Below, piece by piece: positions 1-2,905 of a DNA stretch of 64,000 nucleotides. The notes under the pieces are model-generated. The model was given only the letters and a program-made list of their open reading frames with translations. It was not told where the DNA came from and did no database searches. A program made the translations under genes and the position numbers. The stretch comes from an uncultured Planctomycetota bacterium (GTDB taxonomy: Bacteria; Planctomycetota; Phycisphaerae; SM23-33). The stretch lies in contig CAITIS010000001.1 of assembly GCA_903892515.1 (NCBI GenBank), positions 13,552 to 77,551 of the forward strand. The letters are read 5' to 3'. The stretch's first letter is position 1, and each line of letters begins with the position of its first letter.

Positions 1-71
1 AATCCCATTGACAACTCGTCAACTCGCGACGTATTATAAGTAACGATATAGTTGAACCATCGAGGTGACCA

Positions 72-422
72 ATGACGACCGCGCAGACTGCCTTGCCCAA
101 GACGCTGCTGAGCCTGGAGTTTCTCTGCCAGGCGGCCGAGTGCCTCAAGATCATGGCCCATCCGGTTCGGCTGAGGATCGTTGACATCCTCATGCGCGGC
201 CGCCTGCCCGTGAACGAAATCGCCGGGCTGTGCCGGATCCCCCCGCAGCAGGCGTGCGAGCACCTGCGGCTGATGCGCGGGCATTCGCTGCTGACCAGCC
301 GACGGCGCGGACGCGAGGTGTATTACGAAATCGCCTCGCCGCGATTGCCGAGCCTGATACGGTGCATCCAGGCCGGCTGCAAGGACAAGCCCGAAGAACC
401 TGTTGTGGAGAAGCGAGCATGA
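72..422 (+). CDS. ArsR/SmtB-family winged-helix transcriptional regulator, Cys-rich, possible persulfide/redox sensor
   Basis: 116-aa ORF with HTH signature HPVRLRIVDIL; Cys pairs CQAAEC (N-term), C..C (middle) and CIQAGC (C-term); stop overlaps the ATG of the downstream gene (ATGA at 419-422). Confidence 0.75.
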   Translation: MTTAQTALPKTLLSLEFLCQAAECLKIMAHPVRLRIVDILMRGRLPVNEIAGLCRIPPQQACEHLRLMRGHSLLTSRRRGREVYYEIASPRLPSLIRCIQAGCKDKPEEPVVEKRA

Positions 423-2905
423 CGACGTCCCCTTTGCGTCTGGTAATCATCGGCGGCGTGGCTGGTGGCGCCACCGCGGCCGCCAGGGCCCGCCGCCTGT
501 CCGAGTCGGCCCAGATCACGCTGATCGAGCGCGGGCCTGACATTTCCTTCGCCAACTGCGGCATGCCGTACTACCTGGGCGGCGTGATCGAGAATCGCAG
601 CGCCCTGCTGGTGCAGACCGTTGCGGGCATGAAGCGTCGCTACGGCGTGGACGTCCGCGTGGGAACGGAAGCCATGGAAATCGACCGGGCCAGTCGGCGC
701 GTTCGGCTGCGCGACCTGGCCAGCGGAAGCGAAAGTCAGCTGGAGTATGACTACCTGATCCTTTCGCCCGGCGCGCACCCCATTGTGCCTGACATGCCGG
801 GCGCTGACGACCCCAGCGTCTTCGCGCTGCGGTCGCTGGGGGACATGGACGCCATTGACCAGGCCGTGCGGTCAGGGGCCAAGGCGGCGGTGATCGTCGG
901 GGCCGGGTACATCGGGCTGGAGATGGCCGAGAACCTGCGGCATCGCGGCCTGGAGATCAAGCTGATCGAGCGAACCGACCACGTCATGTCGATAGCCGAT
1001 GTGGAAATGACCGCCCCGCTGCATGCCGAGTTGCGGCGCAACGGCATCGAGTTGCACCTGAACATGTCGGTCAAGGCCATCGAGCGTGAGAACGGGCGTT
1101 TGCAGGCTGTTCTGGCCGATGGCAGGAAGCTGGACGCCGACTTTGCGATTATGTCCGTGGGCGTGAAGCCCGAAAGCACGCTCGCCCGCAACTGCGGCCT
1201 GGAGTTGGCGGCATCGGGCGGCATCGTCGTCGATGAACACATGCGGACCACCGATGAACGCATCTACGCCGTGGGCGACGCCGTCGAGGTGCGGAACATC
1301 GTGGCCGATCGCGCCGCGCTGGTGCCGCTGGCCGGGCCGGCGAACCGGCAGGGACGCATTGCCGCCGACAACATCTTTGGCCGGCCCAGCGCCTACCACG
1401 GCTCGCAGGGCACGGCCATCTGCAAAGTCTTCGACCTGGCCATCGGCATGACCGGTTTGACCGAGCAGGCGGCCAACAAATTCGGCATCGCGTGCGAGAA
1501 GGTGTACATCCACCCGGCCAGCCATGCCGGGTACTTTCCCGGCGCGGCGCCGCTGACGCTCAAGCTGCTGTTTTCTCCGACGGATGGCAAGGTGCTGGGC
1601 GCCCAGGCCATCGGGACCGACGGCGTGGACAAGCGCATCGACGTGCTGGCGGTGGCGATTCGGGCGGGCATGAGCGTATACGACTTGCAGGATCTGGAAC
1701 TGTCGTACGCGCCGCCGTACGGCTCGGCCAAGGATCCGGTGAACTACGCCGGCTTCGTGGCCGCCAACGCCCTGGCGGGCGACGTGCGGCTGTTCCACGC
1801 CCGCGACGCCCTGGCCGTCGGGCCGGGCCAGGTGCTGCTGGATGTCCGCACGCCCGCCGAAGTCAGCGTCGGCATGATCCCCGGCGCGATGTGCATGCCG
1901 CTGGATGAACTGCGCAGCCGACTCGGCGAACTGCCGCGCGACAAAGAGTTCCTCGTGTATTGCCAAGTTGGCCTGCGCGGCTACCTGGCGTGCCGGACGC
2001 TCAGTCAGAACGGCCTGCGCTGCCGGAATCTCTCGGGCGGGTTCAAGACCTTCCAGAGCGTCGCGCAACTGGCCGGCCAGGCCCCTGCGTCCGTGCCGCC
2101 AAGGACACCCATGCAAGCACAACCATCTCAGCAGAGTCCCTCAGCGTGCGCGGGCAGGCCGTGCAGCCAGCCCAAGGTCGTCAAAGAAATCGACGCCACG
2201 TGCATGCAGTGCCCCGGGCCGATCATGCGGCTGGCGAGCGAACTGGCGACCCTGGCCAGCGGCGACTCGGCCCGCATCACCACCAACGACCCGGGCTTTG
2301 CCGCCGACGTGAAAGGCTGGTGCGACAGCACGGGCGATACGCTGGCCCAGCTTGGCCAGACGGGCAAGGCGCACTGGGCCATCGTGACCAAGGGCGCGAC
2401 CGCCGCGGCAACTGCGTCCGCTCCGGCCAACGCCACCAAGCGTAAGACAATCCTCGTTTTCAGCAGCGACTTTGAGCGGGTGTTCGCTGCCTTCATCCTG
2501 GCCAATGGCGCCGCCGCCATGGGCAGCGAAGTCACGCTGTTCTTCACCTTCTGGGGGCTCAACGCCCTGCGGCGGAGCGAAAACGTTCGCGTCCCCAAGA
2601 CCTTCATCGAGCGGATGTTCGGCTGGATGATGCCGCGCGGCGCCGGCCGGCTGAGCCTGTCCAAGATGCACATGGGCGGCGTGGGCAAAAAGCTGATGCT
2701 GGGCATCATGAAGGACAAGGGCGTGTCCAGCCTGGAGGAGTTGATCGCCTCGGCCAAGCAGGCCGGCGTGAAGCTCGTGGCGTGCAGCATGAGCATGGAC
2801 GTGATGGGCATCCACCCCGAGGAACTCATCGACGGCGTCGAGCAAGGCGGCGTCAGCAGTTTCCTGGCCACAGCCGAACAAGGCTCCATGACATTGTGCA
2901 TGTGA
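419..2905 (+). CDS. Multidomain sulfur-relay oxidoreductase: CoA-disulfide reductase/NADH oxidase + rhodanese + TusA-like + DsrE/DsrF-like
   Basis: N-term FAD Rossmann motif IIGGVAGGATAAARAR and ANCGMPYY (pyridine nucleotide-disulfide oxidoreductase); rhodanese-type region with CQVGLRGY; TusA motif CMQCPGP; C-terminal DsrE-like domain; the ORF track's upstream extension from 230 was rejected in favour of the ATG at 419. Confidence 0.75.
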   Translation: MTTSPLRLVIIGGVAGGATAAARARRLSESAQITLIERGPDISFANCGMPYYLGGVIENRSALLVQTVAGMKRRYGVDVRVGTEAMEIDRASRRVRLRDLASGSESQLEYDYLILSPGAHPIVPDMPGADDPSVFALRSLGDMDAIDQAVRSGAKAAVIVGAGYIGLEMAENLRHRGLEIKLIERTDHVMSIADVEMTAPLHAELRRNGIELHLNMSVKAIERENGRLQAVLADGRKLDADFAIMSVGVKPESTLARNCGLELAASGGIVVDEHMRTTDERIYAVGDAVEVRNIVADRAALVPLAGPANRQGRIAADNIFGRPSAYHGSQGTAICKVFDLAIGMTGLTEQAANKFGIACEKVYIHPASHAGYFPGAAPLTLKLLFSPTDGKVLGAQAIGTDGVDKRIDVLAVAIRAGMSVYDLQDLELSYAPPYGSAKDPVNYAGFVAANALAGDVRLFHARDALAVGPGQVLLDVRTPAEVSVGMIPGAMCMPLDELRSRLGELPRDKEFLVYCQVGLRGYLACRTLSQNGLRCRNLSGGFKTFQSVAQLAGQAPASVPPRTPMQAQPSQQSPSACAGRPCSQPKVVKEIDATCMQCPGPIMRLASELATLASGDSARITTNDPGFAADVKGWCDSTGDTLAQLGQTGKAHWAIVTKGATAAATASAPANATKRKTILVFSSDFERVFAAFILANGAAAMGSEVTLFFTFWGLNALRRSENVRVPKTFIERMFGWMMPRGAGRLSLSKMHMGGVGKKLMLGIMKDKGVSSLEELIASAKQAGVKLVACSMSMDVMGIHPEELIDGVEQGGVSSFLATAEQGSMTLCM

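Follow-up and report, generated by a model that had tools for sequence, protein, structure and literature searches.

Bacteria must keep reactive sulfur, i.e., persulfides and polysulfides, inside narrow limits, and to our knowledge only a few pairs of sensor and enzyme are understood, e.g., CstR-CoAPR, SqrR, and BigR. The locus studied here, at positions 72 to 2905 of a 64,000-nucleotide stretch of planctomycetal DNA (the window), raises the question of whether a cysteine-rich regulator and the large enzyme encoded directly behind it form another such pair. With a probability slightly above one half (roughly 0.55), the two genes are a self-contained, autoregulated module that senses sulfane sulfur (persulfides or polysulfides) and removes it reductively. 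This reading is drawn from the identity of the enzyme, the linkage of the two genes, the dyad in the promoter spacer, and the conserved cysteines, while the inducer, sulfane sulfur or thiol stress, is suggested by analogy.

The four-domain enzyme and its relatives

The second gene (ORF2, positions 419 to 2905, plus strand) encodes a protein of 828 amino acids, in which the sequence-only reading had recognized a CoA-disulfide-reductase (CoADR), a rhodanese, a TusA, and a DsrE domain. All four were supported, with their borders, by Pfam matches and each carried its catalytic cysteine: Pyr_redox_2 (residues 7-292, E = 1e-63) with Pyr_redox_dim (333-434), Rhodanese (470-546, 6.5e-13), TusA (589-655, 4e-13, 49 bits against a cutoff of 28.6), and DrsE_2 (674-826, 7e-58, 195 bits), E-values that exclude a chance match. 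The FAD/NADH-dependent CoADR-type domain (residues 7-453, positions 437 to 1777, as all following features on the plus strand) contains the redox Cys47 (557 to 559, in SFANCG) and the dinucleotide-binding motifs GGVAGG and GAGYIG, and the rhodanese domain (residues 461-552, 1799 to 2074) the active Cys515 (1961 to 1963, in CQVGLRG). A disordered linker rich in Pro, Gln, Ser, and Ala (residues 554-582, 2078 to 2164), unconserved in the alignment, leads to the TusA domain (residues 587-657, 2177 to 2389), where C598 (2210 to 2212), P599, G600, and P601 were invariant and the CPGP aligned with the CPEP of E. coli TusA/YhhP (C19 motif). After a second, short flexible linker (residues 662-672, 2402 to 2434) follows the DsrE_2 (DsrE/DsrF/DrsH-like) domain (residues 674-827, 2438 to 2899) with Cys789 (2783 to 2785, in LVACSMS). 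The four catalytic cysteines and both dinucleotide-binding motifs were invariant in 22 homologues, and AlphaFold predicted four folded blocks joined by the two linkers at low confidence (pLDDT <50). The DsrE_2 domain matched PDB 3PNX, a 'putative sulfurtransferase DsrE' (1.6e-30), with Cys789 aligned to the cysteine of 3PNX; its score against the DsrE2 equivalog model NF047629 was below the cutoff (85.6 vs 210), and it is therefore not DsrE2 proper.

Residues 7-549 of ORF2 aligned end to end with three solved enzymes, Npsr of Shewanella loihica (3NTA, 9e-180 over 543 residues), CoADR-RHD of Bacillus anthracis (3ICR, 4e-162), and CoAPR of Enterococcus faecalis (8A56, 2e-152). In the alignment with Npsr the redox cysteine in SFANCG and the rhodanese cysteine in FCQVGLRG were both matched, as were the motifs that bind FAD and NADH. 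Judged from its sequence, ORF2 is probably a flavoenzyme of the Npsr/CoAPR type with predicted persulfide-reductase activity, although it differs from all three in about 280 additional C-terminal residues that carry the TusA and DsrE_2 domains on flexible linkers. CoAPR likewise stands behind a thiol-based, persulfide-sensing repressor, CstR, through which sulfide induces it, and its rhodanese cysteine is persulfidated in cells (PMC9405070). However, CstR is of the CsoR type, whereas the regulator of ORF2 is of the ArsR type.

Two proteins have exactly the domain order of ORF2, Pcar_0429 of Pelobacter carbinolicus and BF638R_0572 of Bacteroides fragilis, both biochemically uncharacterized. The borders reported for the latter (CoADR 14-440, rhodanese 462-540, TusA 589-657, DsrE 671-825; PMC6158253) are nearly those of ORF2. 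A mechanism in which sulfane sulfur is captured, relayed, and reduced within one polypeptide, as the sequence-only reading had proposed, was put forward for Pcar_0429 in 2012 (PMC3543383), and the fusion with its relay mechanism was published for BF638R_0572 in 2018 (PMC6158253). Thus the fusion itself is real, but the design is not new. A further comparison can be made with S. aureus CstA, which is described as a fusion of DsrE, rhodanese, and TusA that relays sulfane sulfur between cysteines and is controlled by a persulfide-sensing repressor in the CstR regulon (PMC9918477, citing Higgins 2015). By that description CstA has no flavin reductase domain and would therefore pass sulfur on instead of reducing it.

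The same relatives bear on another explanation, i.e., that the locus is a module against general thiol/disulfide (oxidative or electrophile) stress, in which the regulator senses oxidants through simple disulfides and the enzyme acts as a CoA-disulfide or mixed-disulfide reductase for low-molecular-weight and protein thiols, with the sulfur-carrier domains as thiol-exchange modules. BF638R_0572 was derepressed 50-fold in a mutant of the MarR-type repressor BmoR and its loss raised sensitivity to diamide (PMC6158253). It is the sole four-domain homologue with genetic data, and its diamide phenotype, MarR-type regulator, and oxygen context weaken the sulfane-sulfur reading. Its control by BmoR also sets it apart from ORF2, which is preceded by an overlapping gene for a cysteine-rich ArsR protein. 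Thioredoxin genes sometimes found upstream of the enzyme gene and the strong match to the CoA-disulfide reductase model TIGR03385 point in the direction of thiol stress as well. However, this match remained under the equivalog cutoff (469.8 vs 578.8 bits), as did those to NF007123 (381 vs 458) and NF010037 (334 vs 394). The closest solved relatives are the persulfide reductases Npsr and CoAPR and not a plain CoADR, and rhodanese, TusA, and DsrE are carriers of sulfane sulfur whose active cysteines were invariant. The thiol-stress explanation is for these reasons considered unlikely.

Linkage of the two genes and the predicted operator

The first gene (ORF1, positions 72 to 422, plus strand) encodes the regulator of 116 amino acids and is preceded by a Shine-Dalgarno sequence, GAGGTG, read from the sequence at 62 to 67 (plus strand), 4 nucleotides 5' of the ATG at 72. 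At the junction with ORF2 (407 to 422, plus strand) a ribosome-binding site, GGAG (407 to 410), lies inside the regulator gene, and the ATG of ORF2 at 419 overlaps the TGA stop of ORF1 at 420 to 422 (GCATGA), so that the ATGA coupling (419 to 422) described from the sequence alone was confirmed. The idea of a compact regulator-enzyme module was equally borne out. Metagenome loci were collected with the regulator as the only query, and in 70 of the 77 with room for a downstream gene a CoADR-rhodanese(-TusA-DsrE) gene followed directly on the same strand. Conversely, an ArsR protein was the commonest upstream neighbor in genome loci anchored on the enzyme (33/80 by phmmer, 19/66 by Pfam). Thioredoxin genes were occasional upstream neighbors of the enzyme. 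Besides the enzyme gene, no neighbor was conserved in the regulator-anchored loci. The GC content was uniform at 62-68% throughout the first 12 kb, and no island signature was seen there. No convincing intrinsic terminator was found on the plus strand 3' of 2905, and an Rfam scan of the locus gave a single sub-threshold match, V_AS7, antisense to the coding region, which was judged to reflect conservation of the coding sequence.

Relatives of the enzyme were found in at least 597 species, the best 80 loci matching almost all 828 residues, and full-length four-domain genes were spread over many phyla. The top 120 database homologues had the identical domain architecture with 56-61% identity, and the homologues came mostly from metagenome-assembled genomes of Pirellulales, Planctomycetaceae, and Thermoguttaceae. 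Many carriers, e.g., Clostridia, Omnitrophota, and sediment Planctomycetota, are anaerobes, which could fit a catabolic role, i.e., a respiratory or fermentative reductase of S0 or polysulfide that serves as electron sink and is turned on by its repressor when sulfur is present. Sulfur respiration was indeed proposed for Npsr (PMC7969121), and Pcar_0429 was proposed as a terminal S0 reductase in the Pelobacter genome paper (PMC3543383). On the other hand, conserved respiratory, hydrogenase, or membrane partner genes were absent near the module, the enzyme is predicted to be soluble and cytoplasmic, and the tight, autorepressed bicistronic layout is typical of a stress module. A catabolic role therefore appears improbable.

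The region contains a single sigma-70-like site, TTGACA-18-TATTAT, with 11 of 12 matches (positions 2686-2715 of the extracted locus L081, i.e., 8 to 37 of the window); its -35 hexamer TTGACA lies at 8 to 13 and its -10 hexamer TATTAT at 32 to 37, both on the plus strand, and TTGACA or TTGA recurred at the equivalent position in orthologous loci. Within the spacer between the -35 and -10 elements the regulator clade shares a 20-bp dyad with the consensus ATATCG-N8-CGATAT (ATATCGnnAnnTnnCGATAT), which 71 of the 80 upstream regions compared (79 from orthologous loci, one from the present locus) matched with a score of at least 9/12. The corresponding predicted operator of the window is the unstranded dyad AACTCGTCAACTCGCGACGT at 13 to 32. 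It is a weak copy that has diverged from the consensus, with 8 of the 12 outer positions matching, similar to that of locus L085, and this weakens the model of repression presented below. The core TCGnnAnnTnnCGA is kept and occurs a single time in the 64 kb, precisely at the promoter. As the expected number is 1.07, the count is not above chance and gives no sign of a regulon inside the window; the position alone is informative.

The regulator clade and its cysteines

ORF1 is a member of the ArsR/SmtB family. Its scores exceeded the cutoffs of the NCBIfam ArsR/SmtB model NF033788 (70.5 bits, cutoff 55) and of Pfam HTH_20 (32.1, cutoff 27), and its AlphaFold model (pLDDT 89.7; helices 15-28, 31-40, 47-54, 58-70, and 91-103; beta hairpin 74-87) had exactly the alpha1-alpha2-alpha3-alpha4-beta1-beta2-alpha5 topology of the ArsR/SmtB winged helix-turn-helix. 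Foldseek matched the model to NolR, SmtB, HlyU, SqrR, PagR, and BigR with TM scores of 0.8-0.88, normalized by target length, and the top PDB sequence match was PagR, ahead of SqrR or BigR.

The clade around ORF1 comprises at least 260 proteins, mainly from Planctomycetota, and cysteines were counted in 181 non-redundant members. The ORF1 protein has six cysteines (19, 24, 54, 62, 98, and 103). Those at 24 (codon 141-143), 54 (231-233), 98 (363-365), and 103 (378-380) were kept in 96-98% of these members (96% for C103), Cys62 (255-257) was usually kept, and C19 showed no conservation across the clade. In the model, C24 lies in alpha1, C54 at the end of alpha3, C98 in the middle of alpha5, and C103 at the end of alpha5. 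These four are presumably close to one another, as we assume from the ligand positions of SmtB.

As in ORF1, the genes of the ArsR persulfide sensors SqrR (Rhodobacter capsulatus), BigR (Xylella, Acinetobacter), and HlyU (SSN cluster 4) encode the ArsR winged-helix fold and adjoin sulfurtransferase or persulfide-reducing genes, and the regulator had at first been labeled SqrR/BigR-like. This label had to be abandoned. When the regulator was aligned with BigR, SqrR, and HlyU as deposited in the PDB, Asp38 took the place of the alpha2 sensing cysteine (SqrR C41/BigR C42), and the same column held D, E, N, Q, or H in the clade and a cysteine in 0 of the 181 members, so that the canonical pair is missing. 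The BigR equivalog model NF040642 gave 33.8 bits against a cutoff of 155. C103 of ORF1 ends alpha5 in the model and lies one alignment column ahead of SqrR C107/BigR C108, the sensing cysteines at the C-terminal end of alpha5, to which it may correspond; C24, C54, and C98 are extra in the ORF1 clade. Similarly, the SqrR operator ATTC-N8-GAAT (bioRxiv 10.64898/2026.05.15.721447) has the 4-N8-4 geometry of the clade dyad, but the half-sites differ in their bases (ATCG/CGAT in the clade). On the alignments, the regulator is an uncharacterized branch of the ArsR/SmtB family without SqrR/BigR-like sensing residues.

Other known sensor types were also rejected. An H2O2-sensing ArsR of the RexT type, defined by vicinal Cys40-Cys41 in alpha3 and an adjoining thioredoxin gene (PMC8960804), does not fit, as the vicinal pair is absent and the PDB search returned no RexT match at E < 1e-3. 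In a classical As(III)-sensing ArsR, with ars genes close by, one would expect either a CxC(xxC) motif in alpha3, the start of which reads RLPVNEI here, or three cysteines in alpha5, where ORF1 has only two; the motif of a CmtR-type site is absent from ORF1.

The missing SqrR/BigR pair casts doubt on the sensing of sulfane sulfur. Four near-invariant cysteines would also suit a Zn, Fe-S, or As(III) site. The regulator could be a metal(loid) or cofactor sensor that binds As(III)/Sb(III), Zn/Cd, or an Fe-S cluster through the four cysteines kept at 96-98%, with an indirect link to sulfur. As(III) sites of the ArsR family have arisen repeatedly at varied positions, including in alpha5 only (PMC10054925), and in Fusibacter a CoADR-rhodanese gene lies within an ArsR-ACR3-ArsC cluster (PMC5525254). 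However, the 53 flanking proteins of the clade loci had no family in common and included no ars, metal-transport, or sulfur genes, and the regulator clade accompanies the persulfide-reductase gene instead, in the 70 of 77 loci given above. In addition, alpha3 has no CxC, alpha5 has no three-cysteine motif, and the alpha5 ligand positions of SmtB would map to the non-ligands Ser89 and Arg91. A metal or cofactor sensor is regarded as quite improbable. Because the set of Cys24, Cys54, Cys98, and Cys103 is very strongly conserved, thiol-based sensing is still plausible.

Proposed mechanism and its meaning

In the preferred reading of a sulfane-sulfur module, the reduced ArsR-type dimer would occupy the dyad at 13 to 32, as the position and conservation of the operator suggest, and block RNA polymerase, so that the two presumably co-transcribed, ATGA-joined genes would both be repressed. 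A rise in sulfane sulfur, or in some other oxidant of thiols, would then oxidize or bridge C98/C103 in alpha5, C24 in alpha1, and C54 in alpha3, C98 probably standing opposite C98' across the dimer axis, and this may lower the affinity for DNA and derepress the operon, by analogy with SqrR, BigR, and CstR. Sensors of the SqrR/BigR type form a tri- or tetrasulfide bridge with persulfides and then release their DNA. In the enzyme, a persulfide formed on Cys515 would be handed to Cys47 beside the FAD, probably carried on the pantetheine arm of bound CoA, and reduced there by NADH to H2S, the core chemistry being known from Npsr and CoAPR. The tethered TusA (Cys598) and DsrE (Cys789) domains may extend this relay in either direction, i.e., they could gather sulfane sulfur or thiosulfonate for the rhodanese or serve as acceptors.

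A more far-reaching version is possible but less likely than not. The regulator clade would be an independently evolved ArsR sensor of sulfane sulfur, with a novel site of Cys24, Cys54, Cys98, and Cys103, possibly with Cys98 and Cys98' bridged between the two subunits at the dimer axis, and its own operator ATATCG-N8-CGATAT. With the paired four-domain enzyme, a persulfide reductase would for the first time be seen to supply itself through a TusA/DsrE relay in cis.

As the design of the enzyme is known and widespread, the novelty lies mainly in the uncharacterized regulator clade. Anaerobes and sediment bacteria carry the module very widely, and both its four-domain enzyme and its regulator clade are biochemically uncharacterized; experiments can now start from a clearly delimited regulator clade whose conserved cysteines are known, from the predicted operator, and from the tight linkage of the two genes. 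Should the inducer turn out to be a metal or thiol stress in general, the finding would be ordinary. Persulfide sensing by the regulator, if it holds true, would mean that the ArsR scaffold arrived at this chemistry a second time with a different arrangement of cysteines, and the enzyme would then be a test of whether a persulfide reductase accepts a wider set of substrates when sulfur-carrier domains are tethered to it.

Gene arrangement and identity of the four-domain enzyme

The gene of the ArsR/SmtB regulator (ORF1; 72-422, forward strand; 116 aa with six Cys) is followed on the same strand by that of the enzyme (ORF2; 419-2905; 828 aa). The ATG of ORF2 at 419 overlaps the TGA stop of ORF1 (420-422), which confirms the ATGA coupling recognised in the sequence-only reading. 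Ribosome-binding sites were found before both genes, GAGGTG for ORF1 and GGAG, 8 nt ahead of the start, for ORF2. ORF1 scored 70.5 bits with the NCBIfam ArsR/SmtB model (cutoff 55) and also matched Pfam HTH_20. The assignment of four domains to a single 828-aa protein likewise held in the Pfam search, in which Pyr_redox_2 (residues 7-292), Pyr_redox_dim (333-434), Rhodanese (470-546), TusA (589-655) and DrsE_2 (674-826) all exceeded their cutoffs and their borders were mapped. The AlphaFold model of ORF2 comprised four folded blocks with low-confidence linkers at 554-582 and 662-672.

The module is followed downstream by melibiase and M50/CBS peptidase genes, and upstream, across a 545-bp gap, lies a divergent gene of 713 aa (minus strand; 63-2204 of L081, the window's own locus extended upstream), whose protein had no Pfam match. 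GC content was uniform around the module. The gap also contains an imperfect long inverted repeat of 220 nt with nested GC hairpins (CCCCCGCTTTTAGCGGGGG ... CCCCCGCTGAAGCGGGGG; L081 2395-2615), ~130-350 nt before the first position of the window. Its predicted fold reached -127.7 kcal/mol (z = -11.4); Rfam gave no match for it, and no second copy of the hairpin motif was present in the 64-kb window. Candidate identities are an insertion of the MITE or REP type and a structured RNA.

Residues 7-549 of ORF2 aligned end to end with the NADH persulfide reductase (Npsr) of Shewanella loihica (3NTA, E 9e-180), and the same stretch aligned with CoADR-RHD of Bacillus anthracis (3ICR) and the CoA-persulfide reductase (CoAPR) of Enterococcus faecalis (8A56). 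Both the redox C47 (SFANCG) and the rhodanese C515 (CQVGLRG) fell on their Npsr counterparts. Since the score of ORF2 was below every CoA-disulfide-reductase (CoADR) equivalog cutoff, the enzyme is, as judged from these comparisons, of the Npsr/CoAPR type and not simply a CoADR. In the NAD(P)H fold, the last residue of beta-strand 2 is Glu (KLIERTD; LLELAD in Npsr), and Glu at this position is usually taken, by the Rossmann-fold rule, to favour NADH, which suggests that NADH is preferred by ORF2 as well. The C-terminal 240 residues matched E. coli TusA (CPGP motif, C598) and the DsrE-like structure 3PNX (E 1.6e-30), with C789 aligned. C47, C515, C598 and C789 were invariant among 22 homologues of 56-61% identity. 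At the level of predicted residues, the alignments show every catalytic element expected of a persulfide reductase of the Npsr/CoAPR type, together with two more sulfur-carrier domains, each with a putative active Cys, on predicted flexible tethers. A sub-threshold Rfam match to the Vibrio antisense RNA AS7 (V_AS7; window 453-619, minus strand; L081 3131-3297; 54 bits vs. a gathering score of 90, E 3e-8) lay, in antisense orientation, opposite the segment of the enzyme gene that encodes the FAD-binding and active-site-Cys region; it most likely reflects coding-sequence conservation with a Vibrio Npsr-like gene and not an RNA gene.

The same architecture was present in all of the best 120 database homologues, most of them annotated simply as 'FAD-dependent oxidoreductase' and the rest under other generic names. 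When a single genome was scanned for each species, relatives were recovered in at least 597 species. The best 80 loci matched nearly the full 828 residues and came from Planctomycetota, Omnitrophota, Verrucomicrobia, many Clostridia, Paenibacillus, spirochaetes, Actinomycetota, Geomonas and Niveibacterium. The TusA-DsrE_2 part (window 2171-2902; 283 cluster representatives at E < 1e-30) recurred in proteins of ~230-290, 330-400, 460-550 and 800-830 aa, and it appears to behave like a mobile two-domain cassette. Judged by size, these classes could represent the cassette on its own, a protein like CstA and repeated-domain forms; the 460-550-aa proteins matched in three to four stretches, which suggests repeated domains.

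The four-domain fusion and its proposed relay are not new: both have been published before, and genes of this kind are very common. Exactly these domains were described for Pcar_0429 of Pelobacter carbinolicus in its 2012 genome paper, with a scheme of persulfide capture, relay by TusA and DsrE, and reduction through NADH/FAD (PMC3543383), i.e., the mechanism proposed for ORF2. BF638R_0572 of Bacteroides fragilis, with domain borders nearly identical to those of ORF2, was derepressed 50-fold in a mutant without the MarR-type BmoR, and its loss increased diamide sensitivity (PMC6158253). These B. fragilis data would fit a general thiol/disulfide stress module, a reading that is considered rather unlikely for ORF1 and ORF2. 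S. aureus CstA is a fusion of the sulfur-carrier domains rhodanese, TusA and DsrE (PMC9918477); it shares these three domains with ORF2 but is without the reductase. No biochemical study of any full four-domain protein was found in the searchable papers.

The regulator clade and its cysteines

By sequence, the best solved relative of ORF1 was PagR (1e-12), followed by SqrR, BigR, HlyU, SmtB and NolR at 1e-6 to 1e-8, and in fold comparison the ORF1 model was equally near all six. The AlphaFold model (pLDDT 89.7) had the canonical topology, with helices at 15-28, 31-40, 47-54 and 58-70, a hairpin at 74-87 and a helix at 91-103. ORF1 belongs to a distinct, uncharacterised clade within the ArsR family that has at least 260 members, the majority of them from Planctomycetota metagenomes.

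Among 181 non-redundant clade members, Cys was found at position 24 in 98%, at 54 in 97%, at 98 in 97% and at 103 in 96%; position 62 was Cys in 81% and otherwise Ser or Thr, and Cys19 of ORF1 was not conserved. The regulator had been proposed to be SqrR/BigR-like. However, when ORF1 was aligned with the sequences deposited in the PDB for BigR, SqrR and HlyU, the column of the SqrR/BigR alpha2 sensing Cys was occupied by Asp38, a position that was Cys in none of the 181 members, and the alpha5 sensing Cys lay one alignment column past Cys103. The BigR equivalog model gave only 33.8 bits (cutoff 155). In its sensing residues, ORF1 is not of the SqrR/BigR type. To our knowledge, the combination C24/C54/C98/C103 is absent from the described ArsR sensory sites, i.e., alpha3 CxC, alpha3N, alpha4C, alpha5, alpha5 three-Cys, the alpha2-alpha5 dithiol and the RexT vicinal pair.

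The alpha5 ligands of SmtB are D104, H106, H117' and E120'; transferred to ORF1 with the alignment offset of 15, they would place the alpha5-alpha5' two-fold axis at about residue 97-98, and therefore Cys98 and Cys98' probably face each other across the dimer. In a set of more distant enzyme-linked regulators (L009, L013, L015 and L033, from Planctomycetaceae, Victivallales and others), only the Cys98 equivalent was kept, which hints that Cys98 may be the core sensing residue. A different ArsR group precedes the four-domain enzyme in Firmicute loci of Clostridia, Paenibacillus and Anoxybacteroides (within L010-L080, e.g., L024, L052, L054, L058, L061 and L075). Its three conserved Cys (HPxRLC-IV, G-x-CNV and Q-x-C-L in alpha2/alpha3) coincide with neither those of the planctomycete clade nor those of SqrR/BigR.

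Gene linkage and the promoter dyad

Metagenome contigs were searched with the regulator alignment alone, which yielded 80 loci. A CoADR-type gene lay on the same strand, a few to ~150 nt downstream, in 69 of them and 500 nt downstream in one more; about seven loci had room for such a gene and lacked it, and three contigs ended too early. Among complete genes, 29 had all four domains and about four were two-domain CoADR-rhodanese forms not followed by genes for TusA or DsrE. The intergenic gap was mostly 5-60 nt, and an ATGA overlap like that of the window occurred in a minority of loci. From the enzyme side, an ArsR-family gene was the commonest upstream neighbour across phyla (33/80 loci). 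These gene orders show a conserved pair of regulator and enzyme genes, apparently behind one promoter.

The genes on the outer side differed from locus to locus (59 different Pfam families from 53 proteins sampled), and no ars, metal-transport or sulfur genes were among these 53 proteins. This neighbourhood speaks against a catabolic S0/polysulfide reductase, the role proposed for the Pelobacter and Shewanella enzymes, and that reading is considered improbable. Binding of a metal(loid) or Fe-S by the regulator, for which the four invariant Cys and the precedent of a Fusibacter ars cluster (PMC5525254) could be cited, is opposed by the same data and appears slightly less probable still.

Five clade regulators with the conserved Cys (L150, L152, L153, L155 and L162, the last without Cys103 in the ORF as read) had no enzyme gene behind them, their downstream neighbours being unrelated ORFs on either strand. 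In L150, L153 and L155 the conserved dyad lay ~100 nt upstream of the chosen start, which means that the start was misplaced or that these genes have a leader.

The only sigma-70-like promoter found consists of TTGACA (8-13), an 18-nt spacer and TATTAT (32-37) on the forward strand. When the upstream regions of 79 orthologous loci and the window were aligned, a 20-bp dyad, ATATCG-nnAnnTnn-CGATAT, was present in 71 of the 80, directly after TTGA(C/T)A and extending into the -10 region. The alignment thus shows a conserved dyad in the promoter spacer, and the spot between -35 and -10 is the classic position of a repressor site. The predicted operator of the window, AACTCGTCAACTCGCGACGT (13-32), is a GC-richer version that retains the core TCGnnAnnTnnCGA and is similar to the site of the orthologous locus L085. 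The core occurred once in 64 kb, exactly at the promoter, against an expected 1.07. With the count thus at chance level, the evidence is that the core sits at this place and is conserved among loci. The SqrR operator ATTC-N8-GAAT has the same layout, with 4-bp half-sites 8 bp apart, but other bases (10.64898/2026.05.15.721447). Just past the -10, AACGATATAGTTGAA (42-56) carries the right half of the consensus without a mismatch, flank included (CGATATA..TTGA), and a matching left half-site was absent 8 nt upstream. This copy could be what is left of an ancestral layout of operator and -10, or it could serve as an auxiliary half-site.

Proposed working of the module

The functional picture originally drawn for regulator and enzyme is broadly right. 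The reduced regulator would repress the operon, and sulfane sulfur or another thiol oxidant would modify the conserved Cys and release it from DNA. The enzyme would then use NADH to turn the sulfur of persulfides or polysulfides into H2S, and the TusA and DsrE domains may let it work with more kinds of sulfur donor or acceptor. Transfer could run either way: sulfur passes from rhodanese to TusA to DsrE in Allochromatium, and thiosulfonate from DsrE to TusA in Metallosphaera (PMC4175335). The new element is an ArsR clade, defined here, with its own conserved Cys set, its own predicted operator and a tight link to persulfide-reductase genes.
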